Assembly (NCBI GenBank): GCA_001783215.1
Contig: MFRA01000008.1
Location: forward strand, 33,312 to 97,311
Source: Candidatus Magasanikbacteria bacterium RIFOXYD1_FULL_40_23
GTDB taxonomy: Bacteria > Patescibacteriota > Patescibacteriia > Magasanikbacterales > GWA2-37-8
Direction of reading: 5' to 3'
DNA: 64,000 nt
Under the pieces are notes generated by a model. That model worked only from the letters and a program-made list of their open reading frames with translations, did no database searches and was not told the DNA's origin. Both the position numbers and the translations under genes were made by a program. Shown here piece after piece: positions 4,455 through 63,264 of the stretch (positions are counted from its first letter, which is position 1; each line of letters starts with the position of its first letter).

Positions 4455-5231
4455 CTAGAGCACGTGGCTCGTGCTCGCGTGCTTGGGGCTCGTGACCTCG
4501 GGCGGCGGGGTGGCGACCGTGGACTCGGCGGCCTCGGTCTGCTGCTCGGTCGGTCGGGTCGTTGGGCGCTGGGACTCGGTCGGGTTGTCGTAGCCGCGGC
4601 CGTCGACGTTACGGAGCAGGTCGTCGAGACCGTGGCCGCCGCCGAGATCGAACTCCATCGTGATGTCGCCGCCGAAGATCTGGCCGAGGAAGTTGCCGAT
4701 GCCGGACTCGGATCCCCGGAGGATCTGCATGTCGATCGGCAGTCGGGTCGCCCGGATCTGCTTGAGCGCCCAGATCGCGTCCATCGGCTTGACCTTGCCG
4801 CTCATCACCAGATCACAGGCGATCTCGATGCCGAACGAGAAGGAGTCGATCGGGTTGAGGAGGCTCTCGAACGGGTCCAGGCCGCGGAACTTGAAGTGGC
4901 CGTGGTTCCCGTTCTTGCACATCACGAAGTTCTCCGTGCTGCGCTGGTAGTCGCGCGGGAGGCGGAACTTGTCCACCTGCCTGGCGACGTCGGCGATGCC
5001 GCTCACGAGGCGCGCGTACTCCGTCTGCTTCTGGATCTTGGCCGCGGTCTCGAACGAGATCTCGCCGGTTGCGGACAGGGTGCCCAGGCACAGGCGGGCG
5101 TCGTCCTGGGTCAGGACGGCGATCTGCTCCTCCATGCCAGCCACGATGATGAGGCCGGAGGGCAGGCGCAGCATGCTGGTGAGGCCGTTGTCGTCGCGGA
5201 GGAAGGTGCCGTTACGCATGATCTTCTTCAT
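4455..5231 (-). CDS. hypothetical protein on a very GC-rich, compositionally foreign insert
   Basis: Coherent 258-aa ORF on - strand; the + strand ORFs across 4326..5324 are antisense artefacts typical of GC-rich DNA; canonical SD GGGAGA 7 nt before ATG; Pro/Thr/Glu-rich C-terminal tail; only weak local resemblance (STENFVMCKNG) to proteasome-beta-type segment, not assigned. Confidence 0.6.
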   Translation of the reverse strand: MKKIMRNGTFLRDDNGLTSMLRLPSGLIIVAGMEEQIAVLTQDDARLCLGTLSATGEISFETAAKIQKQTEYARLVSGIADVARQVDKFRLPRDYQRSTENFVMCKNGNHGHFKFRGLDPFESLLNPIDSFSFGIEIACDLVMSGKVKPMDAIWALKQIRATRLPIDMQILRGSESGIGNFLGQIFGGDITMEFDLGGGHGLDDLLRNVDGRGYDNPTESQRPTTRPTEQQTEAAESTVATPPPEVTSPKHASTSHVL

Positions 5232-7648: not shown

Positions 7649-9415
7649 TTAAGGCAAGAAGTATAGAGGCACACCCAAGTTTTTAATATCGTTTAGTCTA
7701 AAATCTAAAACTTTACGTCCGACAAAAACAGCTACGACACCATGATCAATTTGTGAAAGTTGTTGAACGTTGTCTTGTAACATTCCTTTACGGGCAATAA
7801 AGTTTAGAGTAAGTTCTGGCAGCTGCTCATCTTTTAGGTTGGTGTTTATATTTCTAATTGTATTTTCCGCATCTTCTTTTATTTGTTTCAATAATTCTGG
7901 GGAGTAGCGGTCTTCTAAGCATAGTAAAATTGTCATTTGTTCGATGTTGTGTTTGCTGGCCCAGTTCGCAGCCAAATCAAGTCGAGGTAAAAATGAGTGT
8001 CCGCGAGTGGCCAGAATAACACACGGTATGCTCCCCAGCTCTATTTTTTTATCATCAGAAATAGGTTCGGCAACTCGTAATTTTTTGGCTACCCAAGGAG
8101 TAAGAATAGGTTCTATGATAAGTGTAAGCAGGATAACCCACATACCAATTGGCACTAGGCCTCTTATATCTCCAATCCCTAAACTGGCAATAGTTACCAT
8201 AAGTACTGCCGGAATGGCACCGGTTTCACGCACAAAAGAGATAAAAAATATTTCTTTCCAAGCAAATTTTTCTTTGCCAAAAAAAGAAAACGGTCCAAGC
8301 GCGAGTATTACAGTAAGAGGGCGGATTAAAAACATGAAAATAAAAGCAGCGGCAATACCAATGCCGGCATAATGGATCAATTCCTGAGTGTCTACCAGTG
8401 CGCCTAGCAAGATAAATATTGTTGGTTTAAAGAAACCATCAATTACATGGTTAAAGAAGCGTTCGGTTTCGTGCAAATGTTTAGTCAGGTTTAGGAGTAA
8501 GCCCGCAATAAAAGCCGATAAATATCCGCTTCCACCCAGCGAAATGGCAATAGTAAATATTATAACCGGGATAAATAAAAAGAAGGCAGAGTCAGCTTCA
8601 AATTCTTTTTCGTGTCCTTTTTTGAAGCGCTGTAGGATTTCTAGACAAACATATCCGATTATACCAAGTAGGACACCGAAAGAAATTTGTCTTAGTAAAA
8701 TTAGTCCGCTTTGAGGAGTAAAGACCATTTTGTACCAATCACCAACGTTATTTGTGGCAACGCCGGTAGCGATAATTCCAAGGAAAGCGATAGTCAAAAG
8801 AGTGCCGGTGACATCTGTAACTGCGCTTTCGGAGATAATAATATCTTTGGTGGAACGGTTATTGAAACGTAATCTTTTTAGTACTGGTATAATGGCTGCC
8901 GGATCCGTGGATGCAAGTATGGCGCCGAGTAGCACAGCTACCATCGTAGGTATGGATAAGCCGAACAGTTTATTTAAAATACCTATGGTTGTAGAAAAAA
9001 GAAAAGCTGTGAGTAGTAATCCGGGAAAAGAAAGGGAAAATATTTTGAGAAATAATTTTTTGAAATTAGTAAATGGAGTTTCTAGTCCGCCGCTAAATAA
9101 AATAAGTGTGGCGCCAAAACCTACTAATGCGCCCAGCACCTCGTGATTTTCTGTGATAGGATACAAAAGTTCGTGACCAGCGATACCAAAAAATATAGCA
9201 ATAACAAACGATGGCAAAGAAGTTACGTGAGATATATAAAAAACTATAAAACTAAGAGCGAATATAGAGCCAACCAGAAAGAATATCATGATTAATCTGT
9301 GTTCGGCGTTTGATTCAAAGAAGTGGTAGAGTTGCGGAGCTAGGTTGGAAATGGTTATTACCGTGGCCAAGCCAAGCAGAGTGCCAAATATTGGCCTAGT
9401 TTTTTTCAGAAACAT
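7649..9415 (-). CDS. cation:proton antiporter (Na+/H+ exchanger type) with C-terminal USP-like domain
   Basis: About 12 TM helices typical of CPA1/NhaP, then soluble C-terminal alpha/beta domain. Confidence 0.7.
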   Translation of the reverse strand: MFLKKTRPIFGTLLGLATVITISNLAPQLYHFFESNAEHRLIMIFFLVGSIFALSFIVFYISHVTSLPSFVIAIFFGIAGHELLYPITENHEVLGALVGFGATLILFSGGLETPFTNFKKLFLKIFSLSFPGLLLTAFLFSTTIGILNKLFGLSIPTMVAVLLGAILASTDPAAIIPVLKRLRFNNRSTKDIIISESAVTDVTGTLLTIAFLGIIATGVATNNVGDWYKMVFTPQSGLILLRQISFGVLLGIIGYVCLEILQRFKKGHEKEFEADSAFFLFIPVIIFTIAISLGGSGYLSAFIAGLLLNLTKHLHETERFFNHVIDGFFKPTIFILLGALVDTQELIHYAGIGIAAAFIFMFLIRPLTVILALGPFSFFGKEKFAWKEIFFISFVRETGAIPAVLMVTIASLGIGDIRGLVPIGMWVILLTLIIEPILTPWVAKKLRVAEPISDDKKIELGSIPCVILATRGHSFLPRLDLAANWASKHNIEQMTILLCLEDRYSPELLKQIKEDAENTIRNINTNLKDEQLPELTLNFIARKGMLQDNVQQLSQIDHGVVAVFVGRKVLDFRLNDIKNLGVPLYFLP

Positions 9416-30732: not shown

Positions 30733-31236
30733 TTAGCGGTCGTTGCGCTGCTGGTGTTGCAGTGCTCCGAGTTTGGCCAAGCGCTTGGTCTGACGACGCT
30801 TGGTCGTGGGGCGGCTCCAGAGCTCGGTATTGCCGCGCTTGACGCCGGCGCGGTGGCCGTGGCGTCCATGCGTGTCGTAGCCCCGGTTCTTGTTCTTGCC
30901 GATGTCCAGCCGGCTCTCCCAGAGCTCGAGGGCTTCGTCGAAGCGGTTGGTTGCTTCAGTGTCGGTGTGGTCTTCGGCCACGTCCCAGAAGCGCTCATCG
31001 TCCTCTTCGGACTGGCGGCGCTGGCTCATGTCCGCGTACGCTCGTCCGAGCAGGTACTCGCCATACTCCGTCCAGGTTTCACCCCAGTTGAAGTTGGTGA
31101 GATGCGTGTGGATCTCCTTCTTGATGGTAGCGCTCAGATACTTCTTGGGCGTTTGCAGTAGGAGCTTGAGCTGGTTGTAGATGCCGTCCCGGAAGGCCTC
31201 CATCTCATCTTCCATTCGGGCACGTAGTGAAAGAGA
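30733..31236 (-). CDS. hypothetical charged protein on second GC-rich foreign insert
   Basis: Coherent - strand ORF; GGAGAAG SD-like before ATG at 31236; ORF track extends to 31338 through AT-rich native DNA, so start uncertain; + strand ORFs 30727..31161 and 30890..31180 are GC artefacts. Confidence 0.5.
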   Translation of the reverse strand, partial: SLSLRARMEDEMEAFRDGIYNQLKLLLQTPKKYLSATIKKEIHTHLTNFNWGETWTEYGEYLLGRAYADMSQRRQSEEDDERFWDVAEDHTDTEATNRFDEALELWESRLDIGKNKNRGYDTHGRHGHRAGVKRGNTELWSRPTTKRRQTKRLAKLGALQHQQRNDR

Positions 31237-31344
31237 CATCTTTCTTCTCCAGCGTTCGTTGTTGGGCGCCAATACAAGCGTGTTGTAATGGGTCATAAAT
31301 CGACTGGTAATAATAGCACAAAATAGGTGTTTTGTCAACAGGTC

Positions 31345-31552
31345 TTGACAGCGGTCTTTAAGCAGTGTATTATGTCTCTAACCATAGACAGCAGGTGTCC
31401 CACTAGGGATCTAATTAGCCAGCTACGCCACAATTCGTGGTTTAAGCCAGGTAGGCCTGCCGAGGTACAAATAAGGGCGCTTAAGCCTGTTCAGGTCGAT
31501 TTGTACTAGTTGTTAGTCTGTGGAATACACAGATTTTTTGTTTTAAAAAAAT
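31345..31552 (+). promoter_or_regulatory. rplJ promoter (TTGACA-17-TATTAT) and structured L10 leader
   Basis: Consensus -35/-10 at 31345-31373; 180-nt GC-richer structured leader typical of L10(L12)4 autoregulation; ORF 31327..31509 inside is spurious. Confidence 0.5.
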
Positions 31553-54337: not shown

Positions 54338-54408
54338 AGGCCTGTAGTTTCAATGGTAAAACATCGGTCTCCAAAACCGAGGTTCTCGGTTCGAATCCGA
54401 GCGGGCCT
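54338..54408 (+). tRNA. tRNA-Trp(CCA)
   Basis: Acceptor aggcctg/cgggcct, anticodon loop ctCCAaa, T-loop ttcgaat. Confidence 0.85.
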
Positions 54409-55837
54409 GCACAGACCGAAATAGGGCGATTTCCGGTACAATTCGGTAGCCCCCTTTCGCTAAACAATCAAATTTTTTGCCTTTCACCGTAAAGTTCGAG
54501 CCTATTTTTTTAAGAAATGTTCGAATTTGGAGAAAATCGCCGTCCGCGGCGATTTTTTTGGCTTGGCAACTGGATAAAATGAATTCCCTCATCGGTTCGA
54601 GCCAATCGTTGCCCTTGTTCTTAACTTCCTTAATTTTGGCTTCCAGATCAAGTTTGTCGTTGAGGAGTTTTTCTTTTTTGTTTATGTATTCTGGTTTATC
54701 AATAATGCCATCCAAATGAGAATCAAGGAGTTTATCTAGCTTTGTCTTAATAGGCATTATTTGTCCTTCTACGGCCTGAACAAGGGCGTCGGACGACTGG
54801 ATTGCGGATGCTTGCTCCTCGTTGAGTTTAGCAAGCAATTTTTCGGTCCAGTCGTCTGACAAAGAAACTTTTTGCAGAGTATCTTTAAACTGGCTCACCA
54901 ATTCTTCTTCGCGGATATATTTTTCATCACAGTTAGTTCGCTTTTTAGTACAGCGGTAATAAATATGTCCTTTGTGCTTTTCGGCGGTAATGGCTCGTCC
55001 GCAAGATCCACAGCTCATTAGGCCGGTAAAAATATATCCGTGGCTGCTTTTTTTTCGGCGCTTGCCCCGCAAGAGCATTACCGCTTGCGCATCGTCAAAA
55101 AGTTTCTTGGTGATTATCGGTTTATGCGTACCCTGGTGTAGTTCGTCGTTAAAACGAAACACGCCAGTGTAAAAAGGATTTTTGAGAATATGCTGCATGT
55201 CGCCCGGCATCATTATTTTGTTTGTCTTAGTGCGAATATCAAATTTTTGTATTAGTTGTTCAAAAGTATATTCGCCGGTCGCATACAATTCAAAAATCCT
55301 TTTTACAAGTTTATGCTTTTCGGGGTCGGGGAGTATGGTATGGTGGCGCAGGTCGTTATTATATCCAAATGGGGCTTTTCCCGGCCAAATTCCTTTGCGG
55401 AGTTTTTGTCTTATTCCACGCTTTACATTTTCGCTTAGGTTATCTACATAATATTTGCTTTGGCCGAAAGAAATATTAAGCATAAACTTTCCTTGCGGTG
55501 TGTTGTCAAACCAAAACGTTGGAAATTTGAGGGAATTTATTTTACCAGTGTCCAACATGTAAATAACCCGACCGCCATCCACACTGTTGCGGGCTAGGCG
55601 GTCGGGATGCCAAGCCAAAATGCCGTCGGCCTCGCCGGCATCAATTCGCGATAACATTTCGCCGAACAAAGTTCGGCCAGGTTGTTTGGCAGTTTTTGCC
55701 TCGCAAAGCGAGGCGACGATTTCAAGTTTTTCTTTGACGGCAAATTCTTTTAACTCGTCGATTTGAGCGTCGATTGACATTACTTGACGCTCTTCCGATT
55801 CGCTAGACTTGCGAGCGTATAAAAAATATTTGGCCAT
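54350..55837 (-). CDS. large serine recombinase (resolvase domain + recombinase domain + zinc ribbon + coiled coil)
   Basis: YARKSS catalytic Ser region, CGSCG...C..C zinc ribbon, long coiled coil; last about 35 codons are encoded by inverted repeat A and the frame runs antisense through tRNA-Trp, so true stop uncertain. Confidence 0.8.
   Translation of the reverse strand: MAKYFLYARKSSESEERQVMSIDAQIDELKEFAVKEKLEIVASLCEAKTAKQPGRTLFGEMLSRIDAGEADGILAWHPDRLARNSVDGGRVIYMLDTGKINSLKFPTFWFDNTPQGKFMLNISFGQSKYYVDNLSENVKRGIRQKLRKGIWPGKAPFGYNNDLRHHTILPDPEKHKLVKRIFELYATGEYTFEQLIQKFDIRTKTNKIMMPGDMQHILKNPFYTGVFRFNDELHQGTHKPIITKKLFDDAQAVMLLRGKRRKKSSHGYIFTGLMSCGSCGRAITAEKHKGHIYYRCTKKRTNCDEKYIREEELVSQFKDTLQKVSLSDDWTEKLLAKLNEEQASAIQSSDALVQAVEGQIMPIKTKLDKLLDSHLDGIIDKPEYINKKEKLLNDKLDLEAKIKEVKNKGNDWLEPMREFILSSCQAKKIAADGDFLQIRTFLKKIGSNFTVKGKKFDCLAKGGYRIVPEIALFRSVQARSDSNREPRFWRPMFYH
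54406..54510. repeat. inverted-repeat A (blocks X 54406-54480 and Y 54481-54510), starts at 3' end of tRNA-Trp
   Basis: Exact reverse complements found at 55892-55966 (X') and 56094-56120 (Y'). Confidence 0.85.
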
Positions 55838-55891
55838 ACAATTTTATTTATTATAGAAAAGTTTGCTTTTGGTGTCCGCCGAGCGGACAAA

Positions 55892-55966
55892 GGCAAAAAA
55901 TTTGATTGTTTAGCGAAAGGGGGCTACCGAATTGTACCGGAAATCGCCCTATTTCGGTCTGTGCAG
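55892..55966. repeat. X' = reverse complement of block X
   Basis: ggcaaaaaatttgattgtttagcgaaagggggctaccgaattgtaccggaaatcgccctatttcggtctgtgcag. Confidence 0.85.
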
Positions 55967-56070
55967 CGGGGATACGAAAAATTACGAGGGGAATTTATGG
56001 GGGCCCAATAACGGGACGGGCGGAAGGAGGGGTTGGGGGAGGAATTCCGCCCGCCCACCGGCGCGCTTTT
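55964..56070. repeat. inverted-repeat B, left copy (about 107 bp, G-rich, GC-rich)
   Basis: Reverse complement present at 59826-59933 with about one mismatch; many G3-G5 runs. Confidence 0.85.
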
Positions 56071-56093
56071 TAAAAACTGCCAAACAACCTGTT

Positions 56094-56120
56094 AAAAAAA
56101 TAGGCTCGAACTTTACGGTG
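56094..56120. repeat. Y' = reverse complement of block Y (duplicate of recombinase codons KKIGSNFTV)
   Basis: aaaaaaataggctcgaactttacggtg; flanked with X'-B1 by a 12-bp inverted repeat gtttgcttttgg (55861) / ccaaaagcaaac (56122). Confidence 0.8.
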
Positions 56121-56248
56121 GCCAAAAGCAAACTTTTTTTATTATACCATATTAATAATTATCTTAGGTGGACAACTTATCTCTAAATATACTTGTAATC
56201 AAAGGGATAGTATGGTAAAATGTCCCTATCATAACTAATAAAAATATT

Positions 56249-56464
56249 ATGGAAGATCTTAAAATATTAAAAAACATTGATAAAAAACTATCAGCTTTAT
56301 TAGCACTTTCCATAGCTTCATGGTTCGGAAGCGCCGACGAAAAATTGAAGACTAAGCCGGAGACAATCCTTTCAACTGTTGGGATTGAAACAAGCGAAAT
56401 AGCTCTGATTTTAGGAAAAAAACTTGACGCTGTTAGAAAATCTATTCAAAGATCTAAAAAATAA
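56249..56464 (+). CDS. mini-HTH protein, paralogue 1 of 4
   Basis: 71 aa; KKLSALLALS...G....IALILG pattern shared with 56467, 56672, 57805 genes; TTGTAA-17-TAAAAT promoter upstream. Confidence 0.55.
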   Translation: MEDLKILKNIDKKLSALLALSIASWFGSADEKLKTKPETILSTVGIETSEIALILGKKLDAVRKSIQRSKK

Positions 56465-56466
56465 AT

Positions 56467-56670
56467 ATGGATAAAGAATTATTACAAACACAAAAAGAAA
56501 TCGTAATGTTATTAGCTATTTTGGTTAGACGGGGAGTTATGCAATCTAGTATCATTGCTGAAATGGATGCGGTGGGACTATCTCCGAAAAGGATTGCTGA
56601 ACTTTTGGGTACCAGCTCTAACACAGTAAGTGTCGCGCTTTCAAACGCACGTAAGAAAAAAAATAAATAA
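56467..56670 (+). CDS. mini-HTH protein, paralogue 2 (clearest HTH: LSPKRIAELLGTSSNTVSVALSNARKK)
   Basis: 67 aa; sigma-r4/resolvase-like HTH. Confidence 0.6.
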   Translation: MDKELLQTQKEIVMLLAILVRRGVMQSSIIAEMDAVGLSPKRIAELLGTSSNTVSVALSNARKKKNK

Positions 56671-56671
56671 T

Positions 56672-56863
56672 ATGTCAGGAAAAAAGCTAGAAGAAAAAAT
56701 GGATAATTTAGAAGCGATAAAACGTCTATTAGTTTTGTTATTAATCAAGCAGGGGGTTGGAATAGACGCGGTAGCCGATGTTTTAGAGGTAGGAGTAGCA
56801 ACGGTTAGCAGGATGGTGCCGCAAAAAAAGTTAAAAAAAGGGAATAAAATTACTATAGACTAA
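56672..56863 (+). CDS. mini-HTH protein, paralogue 3
   Basis: Start at ATG 56672 one nt after stop of previous gene; ORF-track 56630 start overlaps upstream gene. Confidence 0.5.
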   Translation: MSGKKLEEKMDNLEAIKRLLVLLLIKQGVGIDAVADVLEVGVATVSRMVPQKKLKKGNKITID

Positions 56864-56885
56864 GAATGGTTTTGAACAATTTTTT

Positions 56886-57791
56886 ATGACTCTGAACGTG
56901 TCCGATGTTAGATCGAATGGGCCTGAGCAGATACAACATGCCGCCCAATCCTTAGGAAGATCACCGCAGAGAATTGCGGTTTTTGAAGCCATATACAAAG
57001 GTGGTAGTACGCCTAAATCTGTAAAAATTTTAGCTAATTTATGTTTGGCAGAAATTAAGGATGGGAATCATCGAGAAATAAGAATTGCGCAAGAAGCAGC
57101 CTACTTGTTTAATCATGGAATGGTCGAAAAGTACGTTGATGAAAAAACACACAAATTATGTTATAAAAAAGTTGATTTTTATAAATCACACAAAAAACAA
57201 ATAGTTGAATTCGCGAGAGATCCTAAGAAAATGAAAAAAATGATCAGCAAACGCACGCCTATTGTTCGTGAAGTTAAATCAAGAACAGTTGTATATAAAA
57301 GCCCGATAAATGCAAAACAAATTTCAATTGATGATATTGATAATTTTCTTAAAGTAAAAAAAACGGGCGGTAGTAGCGCCTCGGCCAAAACAATTTTAGA
57401 AAAAAACATAAAGAATGGCTTTAAAAAAATTATTGGCGAAACCGGTAAATTTACAGATTGGGGTGGTGAGAGAAATGATTTATTTACAACACGGGTGAGG
57501 TTAGATAAAAAAAGAATTTCAGCTGCGATAGCATTTAAGGGCCGTGCGACGCAAGGAATATTAACGCCTAAAAAGCTTGGGAAGAATGGAGATCAGATTA
57601 ATAGGCTTTTTACTAGCCCAGCCCAATTATTCCTAGTTGTTTATCATAGCGAAATTGATCAGTCGGTGCTAGAACAAATGAAAGCCTTTGCTGTTGCTGT
57701 AGGACAGGCAGGTCAAAAGATTTACTACGGAATCGTTGATGGTAAGGACTTAAATGCAATAATTACAGCTTATCCTAATTTTTTTAAATAA
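56886..57791 (+). CDS. paralogue-type HTH N-domain fused to Mrr-like (PD-(D/E)xK) restriction-nuclease-like C-domain
   Basis: SPQRIAVFEAIYKGGSTPKSV resembles mini-HTH paralogues; C-part TDWGGERNDL...ISAAIAFKGR resembles Mrr catalytic GDGGID...QAK core (tentative). Confidence 0.5.
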   Translation: MTLNVSDVRSNGPEQIQHAAQSLGRSPQRIAVFEAIYKGGSTPKSVKILANLCLAEIKDGNHREIRIAQEAAYLFNHGMVEKYVDEKTHKLCYKKVDFYKSHKKQIVEFARDPKKMKKMISKRTPIVREVKSRTVVYKSPINAKQISIDDIDNFLKVKKTGGSSASAKTILEKNIKNGFKKIIGETGKFTDWGGERNDLFTTRVRLDKKRISAAIAFKGRATQGILTPKKLGKNGDQINRLFTSPAQLFLVVYHSEIDQSVLEQMKAFAVAVGQAGQKIYYGIVDGKDLNAIITAYPNFFK

Positions 57792-57804
57792 TTAGTAGTT
57801 ACTT

Positions 57805-57996
57805 ATGGACAATAATAAAGAGCTCAATAAAAAATTGGATGCGTTAGTTGATCTTTCCTTGCATTCCCTGGTTTTTTCCATGTATATGTCTGGAAACACA
57901 ATGGATCAGATATGTAAAAATTTACACATACACAAGACACGAGTTGTAGAATTGTTGAAAGGTTTGGAAAAGAATCGACAAACAAATAATAAATAA
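57805..57996 (+). CDS. mini-HTH protein, paralogue 4
   Basis: 63 aa; KKLDALVDLSLHSLV...TRVVELLKGLEK. Confidence 0.5.
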   Translation: MDNNKELNKKLDALVDLSLHSLVFSMYMSGNTMDQICKNLHIHKTRVVELLKGLEKNRQTNNK

Positions 57997-58009
57997 TAAT
58001 CCAAACAAA

Positions 58010-58936
58010 ATGAAAAGCTACTATCGCATAATGCTTGGAAGAGGGAGTGTTTACGCTAAAGAGGCGCATGACGGTAATTATATCGGCGCTGGCTGGTTTG
58101 AGAATGTAGACTTAAGCAACGATCTTCCAGAAAATCGTAGGGATTTTAACAAAAAATTTATACCGTTATACTTGGAAAAAAATCCTGGTAAATCAAAAAT
58201 CGCCGCGGGATTGGCCTGTGGTATGTTATACACAGTGGCCAAAGGTATCTCTGCTGGTGATATTGTTTTATGCCCGGACGGGCAGCGAAATTATTGGATA
58301 GGAGAAGTTCTGGGAGATTATCAGTTTCAACCTGGCACGAACTTGCCACATAGACGCACAATTCGCTGGTTTCCCAAAGCCATACCAAGAGATGAAATGA
58401 GCGAAGCGTTGCAGTACGCAACGGGATCTATAGGTGCTGGCGCAAATGTATCTGGCTTTGCAGACGAAATTGAAAATTTTATTTCAGGAACTCGTCCAGC
58501 AACAATTATTTCAACGGATGAAACTGTTGAGGATGCGGGTATTTTTGCGCTTGAAAAACATCTAGAAGATTTCCTAGTACAAAATTGGAAATCTACAGAG
58601 CTTGGAAAGAAGTATGATATTTATGAGGAGGGTGGAGAATCTGTTGGCCAACAATATCCAAGTGATACAGGGCCTATTGATATTCTAGCGATAAGTAAAG
58701 ATAAAAAAGAGATTCTTGTGGTAGAATTAAAAAAGGGAAGGATTGGCGATGTCGTAGTTGGTCAAATACAACGTTATATGGGTTTTGTTAAAGATGAGTT
58801 AGTCGAAGACGACCAGATAGTTCGTGGTGTAATTATTGCTTTTGAAGACGATATTAAAGTGCGCCGAGCTCTTTCGGTCGCGCAAAATATTGATTTCTAC
58901 ACATACAAAGTTAGTTTTAAACTTGAGAAAAAATAA
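58010..58936 (+). CDS. PUA/EVE-like N-domain fused to NucS/RecB-type PD-(D/E)xK nuclease; candidate modification-dependent restriction enzyme
   Basis: N-part YYRIMLGRGSVYAKEA..NYIGAGW...AGDIVLCPDG...YWIGEV (PUA-like pattern); C-part GPIDILAISKDKKEILVVELKKGRIGDVVVGQIQRYMGFV (D..E.K, QxxxY). Confidence 0.55.
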   Translation: MKSYYRIMLGRGSVYAKEAHDGNYIGAGWFENVDLSNDLPENRRDFNKKFIPLYLEKNPGKSKIAAGLACGMLYTVAKGISAGDIVLCPDGQRNYWIGEVLGDYQFQPGTNLPHRRTIRWFPKAIPRDEMSEALQYATGSIGAGANVSGFADEIENFISGTRPATIISTDETVEDAGIFALEKHLEDFLVQNWKSTELGKKYDIYEEGGESVGQQYPSDTGPIDILAISKDKKEILVVELKKGRIGDVVVGQIQRYMGFVKDELVEDDQIVRGVIIAFEDDIKVRRALSVAQNIDFYTYKVSFKLEKK

Positions 58937-58937
58937 T

Positions 58938-59750
58938 ATGAACAACAAAGACGATCAAAAATTAGTCGATGATTTTCTTTTTAATTATTATACAAAGGGT
59001 GTCTCTCTTAATTTGGATGAAAGTGACTTTATTGAGCTGAAAGGAAGCCATCCTTTTCTTAATTTGTTTAATATAGATGCAGTTAAAAAAGCCATAGCAG
59101 GAAGAAATAAAATTGAGGCTGAAAATTATGAAAAAAGCAGGAATAATGTAGAAGAGCTACAAAATGTTAGCCAATATTTTAAGGATAAGGCAATCGAAGA
59201 TTTATTAGAAAAACATTTTAAAAAGGCAGGCAAAAAGGAAAAGGAGTATATTAAAAATGAGCTTGAGAGTGAATTATATAAACACAGGACTTCCGATACA
59301 TTTGATGGGGAGCTTTACATGGATTTAATAAAAGGTGTCGATGGATTTAAAACCAAGTTTTTTTGGTCAAAAATAAAAAAAGTATTAGATTATGCCTGGT
59401 TTTTATTAATAAAATTTTCAACCTTGGCTGTAGTATTGGCAATTTATGATGTAGTTTACAAAGATTTTGAAGTGGTAGTGGCAAGCATATCTATTTTAAT
59501 ATATGTTTCTTTAACGGGGTTTATACAGTTATATACATTTTATACTGATTTGCATAGGATTGAGTATCTGAACGAGTTTAATGAGCTAAAAAAGATGATT
59601 AAACCGAACTATGCGTACGAAATAAAAGAGAAGGAATTATTAACTAGTATCAATAAAATAAATAAAGGGAATGTAAAAATTTTAATAAATTTAATATTTA
59701 ACTCCATTATTTATTTAATAGCAATTTTTCATTTGCTCAGCTTACTGTGA
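58938..59750 (+). CDS. coiled-coil protein with C-terminal 2-3 TM helices (possible membrane effector)
   Basis: ATG at 58938 directly after upstream stop; ORF-track 58836 start overlaps the previous gene. Confidence 0.45.
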   Translation: MNNKDDQKLVDDFLFNYYTKGVSLNLDESDFIELKGSHPFLNLFNIDAVKKAIAGRNKIEAENYEKSRNNVEELQNVSQYFKDKAIEDLLEKHFKKAGKKEKEYIKNELESELYKHRTSDTFDGELYMDLIKGVDGFKTKFFWSKIKKVLDYAWFLLIKFSTLAVVLAIYDVVYKDFEVVVASISILIYVSLTGFIQLYTFYTDLHRIEYLNEFNELKKMIKPNYAYEIKEKELLTSINKINKGNVKILINLIFNSIIYLIAIFHLLSLL

Positions 59751-59825
59751 GTTCTAAAGAGGTTCGAGGTGTACGTATAGATACGCAATAAAAGAATTTG
59801 CCGTCAAAGAAAAACTTGAAATCGT

Positions 59826-59933
59826 CAAAAAGCGCACCGGTGGGCGGGCGGAATTCCTCCCCCAACCCCTCCTTCCGCCCGTCCCGTTATTGGGCCCCCA
59901 TAAATTCCCCTCGTAATTTTTCGTATCCCCGCT
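59826..59933. repeat. inverted-repeat B, right copy
   Basis: Reverse complement of 55964-56070; ORF 59754..60371(-) and ORF 55932..56186(+) share peptides only because they read through the repeats and are spurious. Confidence 0.85.
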
Positions 59934-60026
59934 GCGATATCCTAAATGGCTATAATAGCCATTTTTTGGTTCTAATATTGACAGGTATTCAGAATTACAG
60001 TATAACTTGCCCCAAGGAGACGCACC

Positions 60027-60464
60027 ATGTCTGAGCCAGAAAAAAACACTGCAAAATATTGCTATTGCGGAAGGCGCCATGAAACGGATGAACAGGTTCA
60101 ATCCTGTCAGTTGCTGGGCATACCTACTCCGCGGTATTTGAAGGGGGAGCAGATCCAATTCTGGGGAGGTGAGCTCATGCACAAGGCTACTATCCTTGAG
60201 CTTCAAGCGGTACGAGATCCAGACTCGGATTATGATCCTCATAATGATCCGATTTACTATTTGGTCGAAGTGCATGATGGGCACAGACCATACTGCGTTG
60301 TAAGTGAAGACGATCCGTCCCGCCCTATCACAGAGTATGATGTTGATGGTATTGTCGGAAAAATTGGTCAAGACGACCTACTGGTCAAACCACCGCAGGT
60401 GGAACGGGTGTGTTCCTTCGAGGAGCGCAACAATATTTTCGATACTGTGGTGCGCGCTGCTTAA
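60027..60464 (+). CDS. Cys-containing hypothetical protein in monocistronic cassette
   Basis: TTGACA-17-TATAAC promoter, AGGAGA SD, hairpin terminator at 60484-60505; GC higher than native genes. Confidence 0.5.
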   Translation: MSEPEKNTAKYCYCGRRHETDEQVQSCQLLGIPTPRYLKGEQIQFWGGELMHKATILELQAVRDPDSDYDPHNDPIYYLVEVHDGHRPYCVVSEDDPSRPITEYDVDGIVGKIGQDDLLVKPPQVERVCSFEERNNIFDTVVRAA

Positions 60465-60625
60465 AACACGTTGCGTCGCATTCAAAGAGCTCACTTAGGT
60501 GAGCTCGCTTTATTATATGGAGTAAATTGCAAACACTGTTTTTTCGGTGTTTTTGTTTTTAGTATTGACTTTTTATAATTATTATATTAATATCTTGTGG
60601 CCAAATAGGAAAGGGAGAACAGCCA

Positions 60626-61320
60626 TGTCAACAGGCGTTGGATTTTCTCTGCTTGATTTTCAGTTCGGCCATCTCTATGAGCATAATCATGAGAACAAAA
60701 CGACCAGAGTTTATGGGTTTACCCCAGAAACTTTCCTGCTGTTACCAGGTGGTCACACGCACTTTGGGTTTGTCCTTAGTGGGCATATTGTTTTGGGCTA
60801 TGCTAATGGTAGCAAAATGCCGCTTCCTAAAGGTTGCCATTTCTGTGTAAAAGAGGTTGCTACTGTCGAAAGTTATGGCACGGGGATTGTCAGCTCTGCG
60901 GAAGGCTTTGCTGGCATGAATCAGTTTGGTGGTCCGTTGGAAAACGAGGGCAGATTCCGGTATGTGGACGGTTGTTCCAATAGTTTGCTTGTTCACCCAT
61001 TGCGTAAGGGTGATCCTTGTTTTCATCATCTGCATTTGGATCCTCATGTCAAGGAGATGCCACATACGCACCCATCATTACGCACGCTGGTTGTGTATCG
61101 AGGGGAGGGCGAGGCAATTGTGCCTGGTTTGGATACGGTTCATATCAAAAGAGGTGACGCTTTCGTTATAGAGCCAGACTGTGTTCACAGCTTCAACACT
61201 GGAGAGGCGGGTATGAGTTTGGTTACTTACCATCCCGATAGTGTGGTTGGGTATACCGACGACAACAACCCGATGCTTAACAATACGATCTCAGGCGGTA
61301 AAAGTGCCAGACGAGATTAA
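60626..61320 (+). CDS. bicupin-fold protein
   Basis: Start at ATG 60626 preceded by AAGGGAGA and TTGACT-17-TAATAT; cupin motifs HHLHLDPH...MPHTHP and GDAFVIEPDCVHSFN; terminator gcccacttatctgcctaaagcaggtaggtgggc after stop. Confidence 0.6.
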
Positions 61321-61494
61321 GGGATGTAAAGCACCCACTGTGCCCACTTATCTGCCTAAAGCAGGTAGGTGGGCTTTTTAATTTAAATGTATTTTGAGAT
61401 GTAAATTATAACCCCTCCTGGAATACTCTTTATAGACAAAAATAATCCAAAAAGATATAATTCAAATAATAATATTTGAACCTAACTTTAACAT

Positions 61495-61803
61495 ATGCCA
61501 GAAAAAGAAGTGCCGTTAGCCATAATAATTGAAGCGTCTACAACCGTAGTCGAATTGCTATACAATATTGAGCGAGCGGGTGGAATTAAAAAAAGCAATG
61601 GAAAATTCCAAAATTTAGATGAATTACGAAATGAAATTATTCTTCCGCCAAATACAGATTTATATACAGTAAAAATTATGATAAACATTTTGCCTAGAAT
61701 TATGTCTGGAGTAACCAACACCGACGGTTTTAGAAAAAAATTATCAGAACTTTTATTGAAAGAACTGGAAGCAAAAAAATTAGAACTAGGTGGATCAAAT
61801 TAA
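61495..61803 (+). CDS. hypothetical protein (native AT-rich composition, no SD)
   Basis: 102-aa ORF. Confidence 0.4.
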   Translation: MPEKEVPLAIIIEASTTVVELLYNIERAGGIKKSNGKFQNLDELRNEIILPPNTDLYTVKIMINILPRIMSGVTNTDGFRKKLSELLLKELEAKKLELGGSN

Positions 61804-61928
61804 AATTTTACGATACGCATAAAAAGATAGCTAGCTTGGCTGTCTTTTTTAGTATAGACAAACCATATTCTTCTTGTTAAGCTCTTGTTATTCTGCAGTA
61901 CCAATCCCCGAAAGGGAAGGAGTCGACA

Positions 61929-62129
61929 ATGACCAGCGATTACGAGAGGACTGTAATTAACCCCGGTGACCTTGTTTCCAAGATGGGGTATAAAGCATGC
62001 GTGGGGAGCTATGGCAATTCGCGGGCCGTATTGATTACCCCTCAGCCCGAGGGTAAGTTTCGTGGTTTGGTTGGCCACAGGTGGAACGATCATGTTTCTG
62101 CGTGCCATGCTAGACAAGCGGGTTGTTGA
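61929..62129 (+). pseudogene. possible N-terminal fragment of the PurM-like gene (frame 0) with strong SD
   Basis: GGGAAGGAG SD then ATG 61929; frame differs by +1 from 62062 ORF and overlaps it by 68 nt. Confidence 0.3.
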
Positions 62130-63129
62130 AACAACCCAGAATGATGGCGCTGGCGGCAAGCCGCAGTTCTTTACTTTGGTGGGAACCCCAGAGGCATTTC
62201 GTATGCTGGGTTGGGAGGTTATTGTCATGTGCAATGATGATGTTGCTTGTGGCGGCGGTTTGCCCGTCGTCTTCTCGAGCAATCTAGATATCAAAGAGAT
62301 TACGGCCGAGAACCTGCACTTGTGTGAAGCGTTGATGAGTGGATTTGCCAAGGCGCTTGCCGCCTCTGGTACGGTGCTGATCACTGGTGAGACGGCCGTG
62401 ATGCGACACAGCATTACCGCCTTCTGCGATCGCAGTAATCCTGCGCAGCTCATCGTGAACTGGGCAGGAACGTGTTTGGGCCTTATGCGAACGGATAGAC
62501 CGCCGAACGGTTCTACCATTCGTCCTGGTATGGCGGTTGTTGGTTTGGGTGAAGATGGTTATCGTTGCAATGGCGGTACCGCTCTCACCAACCTGCTTTT
62601 GCAGACTTGGGGACCGCGTATTGAAGACGTGCTGGCAAGCCAAGAAGCGATGGAGTTTGCGAATCAGCTTGTGATTCCTTCACGAAGCTATGCAAGAATG
62701 CTTTCGTATCTTACCGGTTGGCAAAACAATGGCATTCCCGGCGATCCGGTTGCGCGCATTCACGGAATGGCGCACATAACGGGTGGTGGCGTGTGGAACA
62801 AGTTTCGTGAACTGCTTCCGGTGGGAGTGGGTGCGAATTTGCACAACATGCTAAATCCTCCCGAGGTTCTGCTTCGTGCTCAAGAGCTAAGTTATCGACT
62901 TGGTGGCGAGAAAGTTATTACCGACAAGCAGTGCTATGGCACATTCCACGGTGGGTGTGGTGCGTTGTTGGTAGTGGATCCGCAAGATGCAGATTTGGTT
63001 TGTTGGGAAGCGTCTAATTTTGGCCATAGAGCCACGGTTGTGGGCGAGACCACAGAATCTATCGGTAATGAGGTTGTGATTCAATCTCGTTTCCTTCGAG
63101 GCAAATTGCTTTCTTCTCTTCACGAGTAG
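62062..63129 (+). CDS. PurM-like (AIR synthase related) protein
   Basis: Aligns by eye to E. coli PurM: VIVMCNDDVACGG vs VAMCVNDLVVQGA, TGETAVM vs GGETAEM, AHITGGG vs AHLTGGG; GTG start in ORF track. Confidence 0.65.
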   Translation: MVWLATGGTIMFLRAMLDKRVVETTQNDGAGGKPQFFTLVGTPEAFRMLGWEVIVMCNDDVACGGGLPVVFSSNLDIKEITAENLHLCEALMSGFAKALAASGTVLITGETAVMRHSITAFCDRSNPAQLIVNWAGTCLGLMRTDRPPNGSTIRPGMAVVGLGEDGYRCNGGTALTNLLLQTWGPRIEDVLASQEAMEFANQLVIPSRSYARMLSYLTGWQNNGIPGDPVARIHGMAHITGGGVWNKFRELLPVGVGANLHNMLNPPEVLLRAQELSYRLGGEKVITDKQCYGTFHGGCGALLVVDPQDADLVCWEASNFGHRATVVGETTESIGNEVVIQSRFLRGKLLSSLHE

Positions 63130-63264
63130 AACAGCAGTTAAACTAGTATATTTTCTGTAAAACAAAAGGAGAAAAAGGAGGGCAATTAAAAAATCATCAA
63201 GCAGTTGGTGATTTTTTAATTTTAAAATATAGACACCGCCAATCTAAACCGCTACAATAGCTTA

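Follow-up and report, generated by a model that had tools for sequence, protein, structure and literature searches.

Introduction

A moron is a single coding region that carries its own promoter and terminator, has a foreign composition, and lies between genes that are adjacent to each other in relatives (PMC4378225). Here we describe a block of genes of comparable build at 59.9-63.2 kb of a 64,000-nucleotide stretch of DNA (the window; contig MFRA01000008.1, 38.9% GC) from the chromosome of a groundwater Candidatus Magasanikbacteria bacterium, a member of the candidate phyla radiation (CPR; Patescibacteria). An earlier note on this DNA had described the interval as a contiguous block of three genes, coding for a cysteine-rich protein, a bicupin and a PurM-like protein. 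Four open reading frames (ORFs) fill it, not three, and the additional one, which codes for a protein of 102 residues (p102), separates the second gene from the third; we refer to the four as A, B, p102 and C. Judged from sequence comparisons, the block would be a mosaic of moron-like acquired units that accreted stepwise in a variable slot, a reading that we regard as probable, with some reserve. CPR genomes are tiny, and little is known about gene gain in them. This locus provides a base-resolved example in which foreign genes would have arrived as self-sufficient units of promoter, ribosome-binding site (RBS) and terminator, piled up in one slot, and then decayed.

The window sequence matches a 154-kb ENA contig, and a database entry for Candidatus Magasanikbacteria bacterium RIFOXYD2_FULL_39, annotated as hypothetical, is identical to the protein of gene A. 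The assemblies that carry the block represent one near-clonal population (99.9-100% identical over the block), and the block is present in every assembly of this population. Two relatives are referred to throughout: L012, a 1.2-kb contig of a sister lineage, from another sample, that is syntenic with the window, and L023, the closest genome found, whose HPRT is 91% identical.

Composition and expression signals of the block

The four ORFs of the block are as follows (GC3, GC content at third codon positions):

60027-60464, plus strand: gene A, 145 amino acids, GC 48.4%, GC3 0.47
60625-61320, plus strand: gene B, 231 amino acids, GC 47.3%, GC3 0.45
61495-61803, plus strand: p102, 102 amino acids, GC 31.7%, GC3 0.23
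61929-62129 and 62062-63129, plus strand: gene C, 66 and 355 codons, GC 52.2%, GC3 0.52

As the earlier note had observed, the GC contents of A, B and C are clearly above that of the window; they exceed that of the host by 8-13 points. For comparison, the GC3 of native genes is about 0.26-0.40, intergenic spacers have a GC content of 30-37%, and the neighbouring modules one of 28-38%. The p102 gene, which sits between B and C, is low in GC and has no RBS; the only name attached to it is "hypothetical protein".

The second property that distinguishes A, B and C is their RBSs. We scored any AGGA, GGAG or GAGG at positions -20 to -5 in about 54 native ORFs, and found such a motif in two of these as compared to all three genes of the block (hypergeometric P of about 3e-4). 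The Shine-Dalgarno sequences of AGGAG type that the earlier note had pointed out lie 6-7 nt before each ATG:

60014-60019, plus strand: RBS of A, AAGGAG, 7 nt before the ATG at 60027
60613-60617, plus strand: RBS of B, GGGAG within AAAGGGAG, 7 nt before the ATG at 60625; the equivalent in L012 is AAAGGAGG
61917-61922, plus strand: RBS of C, AAGGAG, 6 nt before the ATG at 61929

The most plausible explanation of these sites is that they are translation signals of the donors, retained in a host which does not normally use them.

Promoter-like sequences precede A, B and p102, whereas C has no convincing promoter:

59978-60006, plus strand: promoter-like site of A, TTGACA-17-TATAAC, read by eye; missed by the scanner, its -10 element being without the conserved final T
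60565-60593, plus strand: promoter-like site of B, TTGACT-17-TAATAT, 9/12 matches; L012 keeps TTGACT-17-TAGTAT
61433-61461, plus strand: promoter-like site of p102, TAGACA-17-TATAAT, 11/12 matches, the best promoter match of the region
61855-61883, plus strand: weak promoter candidate of C, TAGACA-17-TAAGCT, 8/12 matches, read by eye and under the scan threshold

Sigma-70-like promoters are also present on native genes of the window; the block is set apart by its RBSs and its GC content, not by its promoters.

The individual terminators that had been read in the earlier note are borne out, with a hairpin and a U-run ending all four units (folding z-scores of -3.0 to -4.3). That of C lies past position 63150, at which the earlier note had let the block end. 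A further hairpin is found upstream of the promoter of A:

59944-59964, plus strand: hairpin and T-run upstream of the A promoter, 9-bp stem, -10.2 kcal/mol, z -2.4
60487-60506 and 60531-60552, plus strand: two terminators after A, z -3.0; the second is common to L012, where it stands before the B promoter
61342-61374, plus strand: terminator of B, with a stem of 14 bp and then TTTTTAATTT, -30.7 kcal/mol, z -4.3
61821-61849, plus strand: terminator after p102, hairpin and U-run, -16.1 kcal/mol, z -3.5
63184-63221, plus strand: terminator after C, A/U-rich hairpin, z -3.4

The hairpin at 59944-59964 probably insulates A against read-through from the invertible segment that adjoins the block. 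Between the stop codon of C and its terminator (63130-63183), tandem RBS-like motifs (AAAGGAGAAAAAGGAGGG) occur with no ORF behind them; they may be the relic of a lost downstream gene.

Comparison with related loci

L012 codes for a bicupin that is 85% identical to B. The contig contains, in this order, the end of the GC-rich arm, a hairpin, the promoter, the RBS and the coding region of B, a terminator, and the promoter and coding region of p102, which is thus kept beside B (76% identity over 45 amino acids); gene A is missing. The difference is confined to one segment:

59949-60521, plus strand: cassette A indel unit, 573 nt, running from the hairpin through promoter, RBS and ORF A to the first of the two terminators; replaced by 13 unrelated nt in L012

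Its junctions read AAATGG on the left and ATATGG on the right. This clean 573-nt difference indicates that unit A was either acquired or deleted in one piece, as a separate transcription unit. Such an indel is shown for A only, a single insertion junction having been observed.

L023 keeps the genes for TIM and a TPR protein, the tRNAs and tRNA-Trp, but between tRNA-Trp and HPRT/CmpB it carries wholly different genes, with neither A, B and C nor a recombinase among them. When we inspected 24 Magasanikbacteria-type loci, A, B and C were found near HPRT in none of them. The absence of the three genes from the syntenic interval of L023, their foreign GC content, and the presence of RBSs in an RBS-poor genome agree with the proposal of the earlier note that the block is acquired DNA; the same context is not shared by this related genome.

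These comparisons bear on the view that A, B and C are native genes which were inherited vertically and owe their GC content and RBSs to amino-acid composition or translational needs. Such a view could draw on the fixation of the block in all assemblies of the population, and on the PurM-like gene family, whose members carry an RBS in most CPR genomes (an RBS motif is present in 55 of 63 full-length loci) and exceed their flanks in GC content in 55 of 59 loci (median +6.5 points). It would have to accommodate, however, the absence of the genes from L023 and from the 24 HPRT loci, the raised GC3, which goes beyond GC1 and GC2, and the indel of A relative to L012. Moreover, identity to the nearest homologues outside the sister lineage is no higher than 57% for C and 50% for B, and A is a near-orphan. 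We consider vertical inheritance improbable.

Gene B and its phage relatives

Pfam detects a single Cupin_2 domain in B (residues 136-200). The AlphaFold (AF2) model of the protein (pLDDT 80.8) displays two barrels, formed by residues 7-102 and 117-203, and its top matches in the PDB are the bicupins 3rns, 1sfn, 1rc6 and 4e2q (TM of about 0.6, identity 12-15%). Going by this predicted structure, the label "bicupin" given by the earlier note is right for B, while a function is not transferable from the fold matches. The C-terminal barrel contains an HxH...H metal motif (H147 and H149 in PHTHPS, H188 in HSFN) that is invariant in a nine-sequence alignment. B is probably a metal-dependent enzyme that acts alone, its metal binding being predicted from this motif.

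A word-indexed protein search yielded eight relatives of B, the nearest outside the sister lineage being 50% identical. All of the CPR homologues whose context could be traced (about five) are solitary and stand in four unrelated surroundings; one lies beside aminoacyl-tRNA synthetase genes, one between ssb and rpsR, and one next to a tyrosine integrase. In the second of these cases (L009, 7001-7711), an rpsF-ssb-rpsR cluster is interrupted between its last two genes by a bicupin gene whose product is 50% identical to B and which is equipped with a TTGACA promoter-like site and a terminator of its own. The 5' untranslated region of this gene (GAAAGGGGTAACAGCCA-ATG) is nearly identical to that of B (GAAAGGGAGAACAGCC-ATG), although the proteins share only 50% identity.

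A scan of IMG/VR retrieved 164 relatives of B with 31-46% identity, and we evaluated the context of 80 of these loci (L048-L127). A gene with PAPS_reduct and DUF3440 domains (IbrA-like) lies directly downstream of the bicupin gene in 76 of the 80, and a ParB_N gene (IbrB-like) follows in 73, often near a terminase gene. The order in this phage module is ParB_N, bicupin, PAPS_reduct+DUF3440 (IbrA-like) and ParB_N (IbrB-like); it recurs in many environments and at locus GC contents of 30-64%. The bicupin of the module has no PHROG match, and its role in an IbrA/IbrB-like module appears to be undescribed. The B family thus belongs mainly to phages, and its copies in CPR genomes have become uncoupled from the IbrA/IbrB-like module.

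Gene A

The description of A as cysteine-rich was an overstatement, as the protein contains five Cys in 145 residues; three of them (C12, C14 and C27), though, are invariant among the homologues. A has no match in Pfam, NCBIfam, PHROG, PADLOC or the PDB. A word-indexed protein search returned A alone, and an exhaustive search of representative proteins added two small homologues (42% and 34% identity) together with spurious repeat matches to large surface proteins. The one homologue with a context lies behind ftsW and has its own GGAGGA RBS and terminator. In the structural model (pLDDT 72), an N-terminal beta-beta-alpha unit that contains the three Cys is followed by a small beta domain, and A is probably a small zinc-binding protein. 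Only a weak resemblance to SH3/chromo-like barrels was found for its fold; a function based on the fold was discarded in view of the moderate model and of the lack of a PDB match with E <0.05.

IMG/VR holds no relatives of A, nor of C, and we reject a phage origin for these two genes. A defence role for A, B or C was rejected as well, as PADLOC gave nothing for them except one spurious match (E 0.006).

Gene C and its frameshift

Both AIRS domains were detected in C (PF00586, 38.3 bits at a cut-off of 24; PF02769, 42.5 bits at a cut-off of 23.1), and the protein matches crystal structures of PurM with E values of about 1e-18 to 2e-18. To this extent it is PurM-like, as had been claimed. It scores only 89.2 bits against TIGR00878 (cut-off 236.35) and is not a PurM equivalog; the possibility raised in the earlier note that C is an ordinary housekeeping PurM does not apply. 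The homologues of C comprise 394-411 amino acids, are at most 57% identical to it, and, where named, are "AIR synthase-related protein" of Patescibacteria, Parcubacteria and Nanoarchaeota. The PurM-like reading needs amendment in one respect: the short ORF opened by the RBS and ATG of C and the remainder of the gene are in different frames.

61929-62129, plus strand: 66-codon ORF with RBS and ATG; homologue residues 1-62 align with it (E of about 1e-12 to 1e-14)
62062-63129, plus strand: main PurM-like ORF, 355 codons, with AIRS N- and C-terminal domains but without the N-terminal residues (about 55)
62091-62093, plus strand: frameshift site, GAT C-ATG-TTT CTG, 1-nt insertion

The first 56 or so residues encoded by the short ORF correspond to the PurM-like N-terminus (with matches to about 75 loci), and beyond about position 62090 the ORF runs out of frame. 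Dropping one base at 62091-62093 restores collinearity with the homologues (...WNDH-FLRAML...). The six assemblies that span position 62091 (L013, L014, L016, L017, L018 and L020) are identical to the window there. The shift also creates a new ATG, with AGGTGG 7 nt upstream of it, from which C would at best give an N-terminally truncated product. We considered a programmed frameshift and dismissed it: the site has no slippery motif and no in-frame stop, and the homologues are unshifted. A second apparent disruption of C, in L016, proved to be a scaffold gap (62582-62616), and L018 stops at the same point.

C is most likely a decaying pseudogene, as judged from its sequence, because the 1-nt insertion splits off the 55 N-terminal residues and because the available sequence contains no purL (none in the window or the L013 flanks). 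In a related lineage, the PurM-like gene has suffered an independent, plain TGG-to-TAG nonsense mutation nearby (L145 and L201) while sister copies are intact, which implies that loss of this gene recurs and, together with the lack of a slippery motif, that the frameshift of C reflects decay rather than recoding.

In about 21 of 63 PurM-like loci, purL is found within 5 kb, mostly directly upstream; the other homologues are solitary. Because purL is thus a neighbour in about a third of the loci, the clade most likely represents AIR synthetase as it occurs in CPR and DPANN. Our search of the literature on this CPR PurM-like clade yielded nothing specific. PurM-like genes (L129-L206 and L002) usually end in a strong terminator, the sequence of which is shared by close relatives (CCTCGGCGTTCTGCGTCGAGG, in L002 and L004).

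The properties of the three genes can be set against the proposal that A, B and C form one acquired cluster which moved as a unit and specifies a small metabolite-modifying pathway, possibly a purine-related one. Their adjacency on the same strand and similarly raised GC content would fit, as would the affiliation of C with the PurM family, the HPRT gene about 0.6 kb downstream of C, and the presence of ureidoglycine aminohydrolase-type bicupins of purine catabolism (1rc6 and 4e2q) among the fold matches of B. Yet no pair of the three genes co-occurs elsewhere in about 90 contexts (some 5 of bicupins, 80 of PurM-like genes and 1 of an A homologue), and L012 carries B without A. Furthermore, the unrelated low-GC gene p102 stands between B and C, each gene is terminated separately, C is frameshifted, and the fold matches of B, at 12-15% identity, are generic. 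The pathway, which the earlier note had put forward, did not hold up, and we regard it as the least probable of all the explanations considered here.

The slot and the adjoining invertible segment

Upstream of the block, the window contains a tRNA gene, a recombinase gene and a segment enclosed by inverted repeats, the right arm of which is part of a conserved GC-rich element:

54338-54410: tRNA-Trp, upstream of the block
54350-55837, minus strand: large serine recombinase, 495 amino acids, with Resolvase, Recombinase and Zn_ribbon_recom domains
55963-56071 and 59827-59935: arms of the inverted repeat, 109 nt, 99% complementary, bounding a 3.75-kb segment
59810-59935, no strand assigned: conserved GC-rich element, 60% GC, which includes the right one of these arms; core GGCGGAATTCCTCCCYCAACCCCTCCTTCCGCC

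The GC-rich element has a length of 110-126 nt, includes a 12-bp hairpin, and is present in three lineages (the window, L023 at 7788-7903, and L012 at 1-75); among 206 loci, it is confined to this lineage. L023 possesses one copy that is 87% identical, and no recombinase; the slot therefore predates the recombinase module. The gene directly 3' of the element differs between the three: A in the window, B in L012, and an ORF of 239 amino acids in L023. A search of Rfam with a limit of E<=1 gave nothing for the element, it shows no covariation, and viral contigs contain no match to it; we rejected the ideas that it is an RNA of a known family or an att site of a phage.

The 3.75-kb segment contains small HTH genes and the gene for a 308-aa NucS_C/PD-(D/E)xK protein (58010-58936, plus strand), which is a full-length match to the candidate defence family PDC-S02 of PADLOC (E 3e-151). 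The segment is found in both orientations in public assemblies; the large serine recombinase beside it therefore probably functions as an invertase. In L018, the reverse complement of 55963-58957 is joined directly to gene A, and other genes take the place of a 270-aa ORF. The arm beside A in L018 and L016 is identical to the left arm of the window and differs from the right arm by one base. The recombinase is similar to integrases of phage type (match to phrog_95, E 8e-81); its gene abuts tRNA-Trp, with the ORF reaching into the 3' end of the tRNA gene. Two pieces coding for the recombinase N-terminus, on either side of a perfect 17-nt palindrome (GCCTCGCAAAGCGAGGC), are duplicated next to both arms. 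They lie in a nested mosaic of inverted repeats (54407-54513, 55678-55752, 55884-56120 and 59789-59826), in which an 83-nt pair flanks the recombinase gene. This mosaic may be a trace of past recombination.

The block begins at the outer edge of the right arm, and the arms enclose only 56072-59826. The suggestion in the earlier note that the block belongs to the same island as this inverted repeat stands insofar as the adjacency to the right arm is kept in L012; the repeats do not enclose the block, though, and the modules differ in GC content and in presence. A broader version would make the entire interval from tRNA-Trp to about 63.2 kb (8.8 kb) a single integrative element, inserted by the serine recombinase and carrying A, B and C as cargo. 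The similarity of the recombinase to phage-type integrases and its position at tRNA-Trp are in line with such an event, as are the difference of the whole interval from L023 and the conservation of the arm junction in L012. One insertion would, however, have to bring in modules that range from 28% to 52% in GC, and it leaves A as an indel within the putative element and the GC-rich element of L023 without a recombinase and with another gene downstream. We found no direct repeat or att-like duplication that bounds the interval. A single event is in our view unlikely.

That each of three lineages has another gene directly 3' of the element raises a further idea, that of an integron-like capture in which the recombinase inserts promoter-bearing units 3' of the GC-rich element. 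The newest unit would then be proximal (A) and the oldest distal and decaying (C). The lineage-specific A is indeed the most proximal and the decayed C distal, and, as both segment orientations were assembled, the element evidently serves the recombinase as a substrate. If capture operated, it would constitute a serine-recombinase analogue of the integron in a CPR bacterium and would explain scattered, high-GC orphan units with RBSs in a genome otherwise devoid of them. The spacers of the block speak a different language: they contain no repeats between the cassettes, and attC-like cores are absent from them or unpaired. In addition, the element exists in L023 without a recombinase, is limited to this lineage, does not occur in viral contigs, and a single insertion junction was seen. 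Capture is accordingly very improbable. An integron proper is rejected, the recombinase being of the serine and not the tyrosine type and attC being absent. The locus represents ordinary island or moron-type gene flux.

Other features of the window

Two further high-GC ORFs are located elsewhere in the window, both preceded by GGAG/GGGAG 7 nt before the ATG and by a near-consensus promoter:

30733-31239, minus strand: ORF, 59% GC
31338->31310, minus strand: its promoter, TTGACA-17-TATTAT
4455-5231, minus strand: ORF, 63% GC; the coding strand of this ORF at 4.4-5.3 kb is uncertain
5425->5397, minus strand: its promoter, TTGACA-17-TATAAT, 12/12 matches
31364-31548, plus strand: ribosomal protein L10 leader (RF00557), 42.1 bits against a gathering threshold of 44, E 1e-5

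No match to either ORF was found in Pfam, PHROG, PADLOC or the PDB, wider protein homology not having been searched. Since they share the anatomy of the block, the phenomenon may be genome-wide. The L10 leader sits between the TTGACA-17-TATTAT promoter and rplJ/rplL.

Discussion

The differences in GC content and in presence of the modules between lineages point to several acquisition events. In the course of events that we propose, four independent transcription units would have accumulated singly in a hypervariable slot 3' of the GC-rich element, which itself flanks the invertible defence module with its serine recombinase next to tRNA-Trp. The units would have arrived by horizontal transfer with the expression signals of their donors, in the fashion of phage morons, and each would consequently be expressed on its own and shielded from adjacent genes. 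B would derive from the phage gene pool, the CPR copies having lost their IbrA/IbrB-like partners.

Several points weigh against this interpretation. A separate arrival of B, p102 and C is suggested by their composition and by their differing partners elsewhere, while the indel concerns A. Promoter-like matches in the region number 16, compared to 11.5 +/- 3.4 in shuffled sequences, which is no enrichment; the near-consensus promoters claimed in the earlier note hold for A and B and not for C, with its 8/12 matches. In the case of C, high GC and an RBS are family-wide traits of the PurM-like gene and thus weak evidence of recent transfer. Its frameshift is reproducible but was sampled in a single lineage, and the absence of purL refers to the window and its available flanks. 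Finally, within 10 kb on either side of the block there are no phage structural or packaging genes, and the sole phage-like gene is the integrase-type serine recombinase. In view of this absence of prophage evidence, we use the term moron by analogy and not to denote membership.

The stepwise accretion of moron-like units does not overturn current ideas. For annotators, the analysis brings to light a phage bicupin that is tightly linked to IbrA/IbrB-like genes, and a CPR/DPANN-specific PurM clade that is often paired with purL.

Comparison with known systems

With PurM/AIR synthetase (TIGR00878; 2z01 and 1cli), C shares the motif equivalents DGAGGK, MCNDD, GETAVM, YRCNGG and HITGGG. It differs in its low score and in belonging to a distinct Patescibacteria/DPANN clade of proteins of about 400 amino acids, and it is frameshifted here. 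Its homologues lie downstream of purL in about a third of the loci, whereas no purL is found upstream of C in the available sequence.

B resembles bicupin enzymes (3rns, DR1152 1sfn, YlbA 1rc6, 4e2q and BacB 3h7j) in its two-barrel fold of about 230 amino acids and in the HxH...H motif, but at 12-15% identity and a TM of about 0.6 it shares no substrate-binding signature with them. Within the phage IbrA/IbrB module, a member of the B family directly precedes the IbrA-like gene at 76 of 80 viral loci; the CPR copies, including B, are without such neighbours and are 31-46% identical to the viral ones.

Like tRNA-adjacent defence islands, the region combines tRNA-Trp, a serine recombinase, a candidate defence gene (PDC-S02) and lineage-specific cargo, except that A, B and C lie outside the repeats and have no PADLOC hits. 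The likeness to integron cassettes consists in a same-strand array of single genes beside a recombinase, with the newest proximal and the distal one decayed. In contrast to such cassettes, the units of the block have their own promoters and no attC sites, and the recombinase, which stands 4 kb from them on the far side of the invertible segment, is of the large serine type and not a tyrosine recombinase like IntI.

The closest parallel is the phage moron in the sense of Juhala and Hendrix. The block departs from it in its location in a chromosomal slot beside a recombinase and a defence module, and in that only B has a phage pool. The resemblance lies in A and B being single ORFs with their own promoter and terminator (C having a terminator only), in a composition unlike that of the neighbours (GC 47-52% versus 28-38%, GC3 0.45-0.52 versus about 0.3), and, for unit A relative to L012 only, in presence and absence between collinear relatives.

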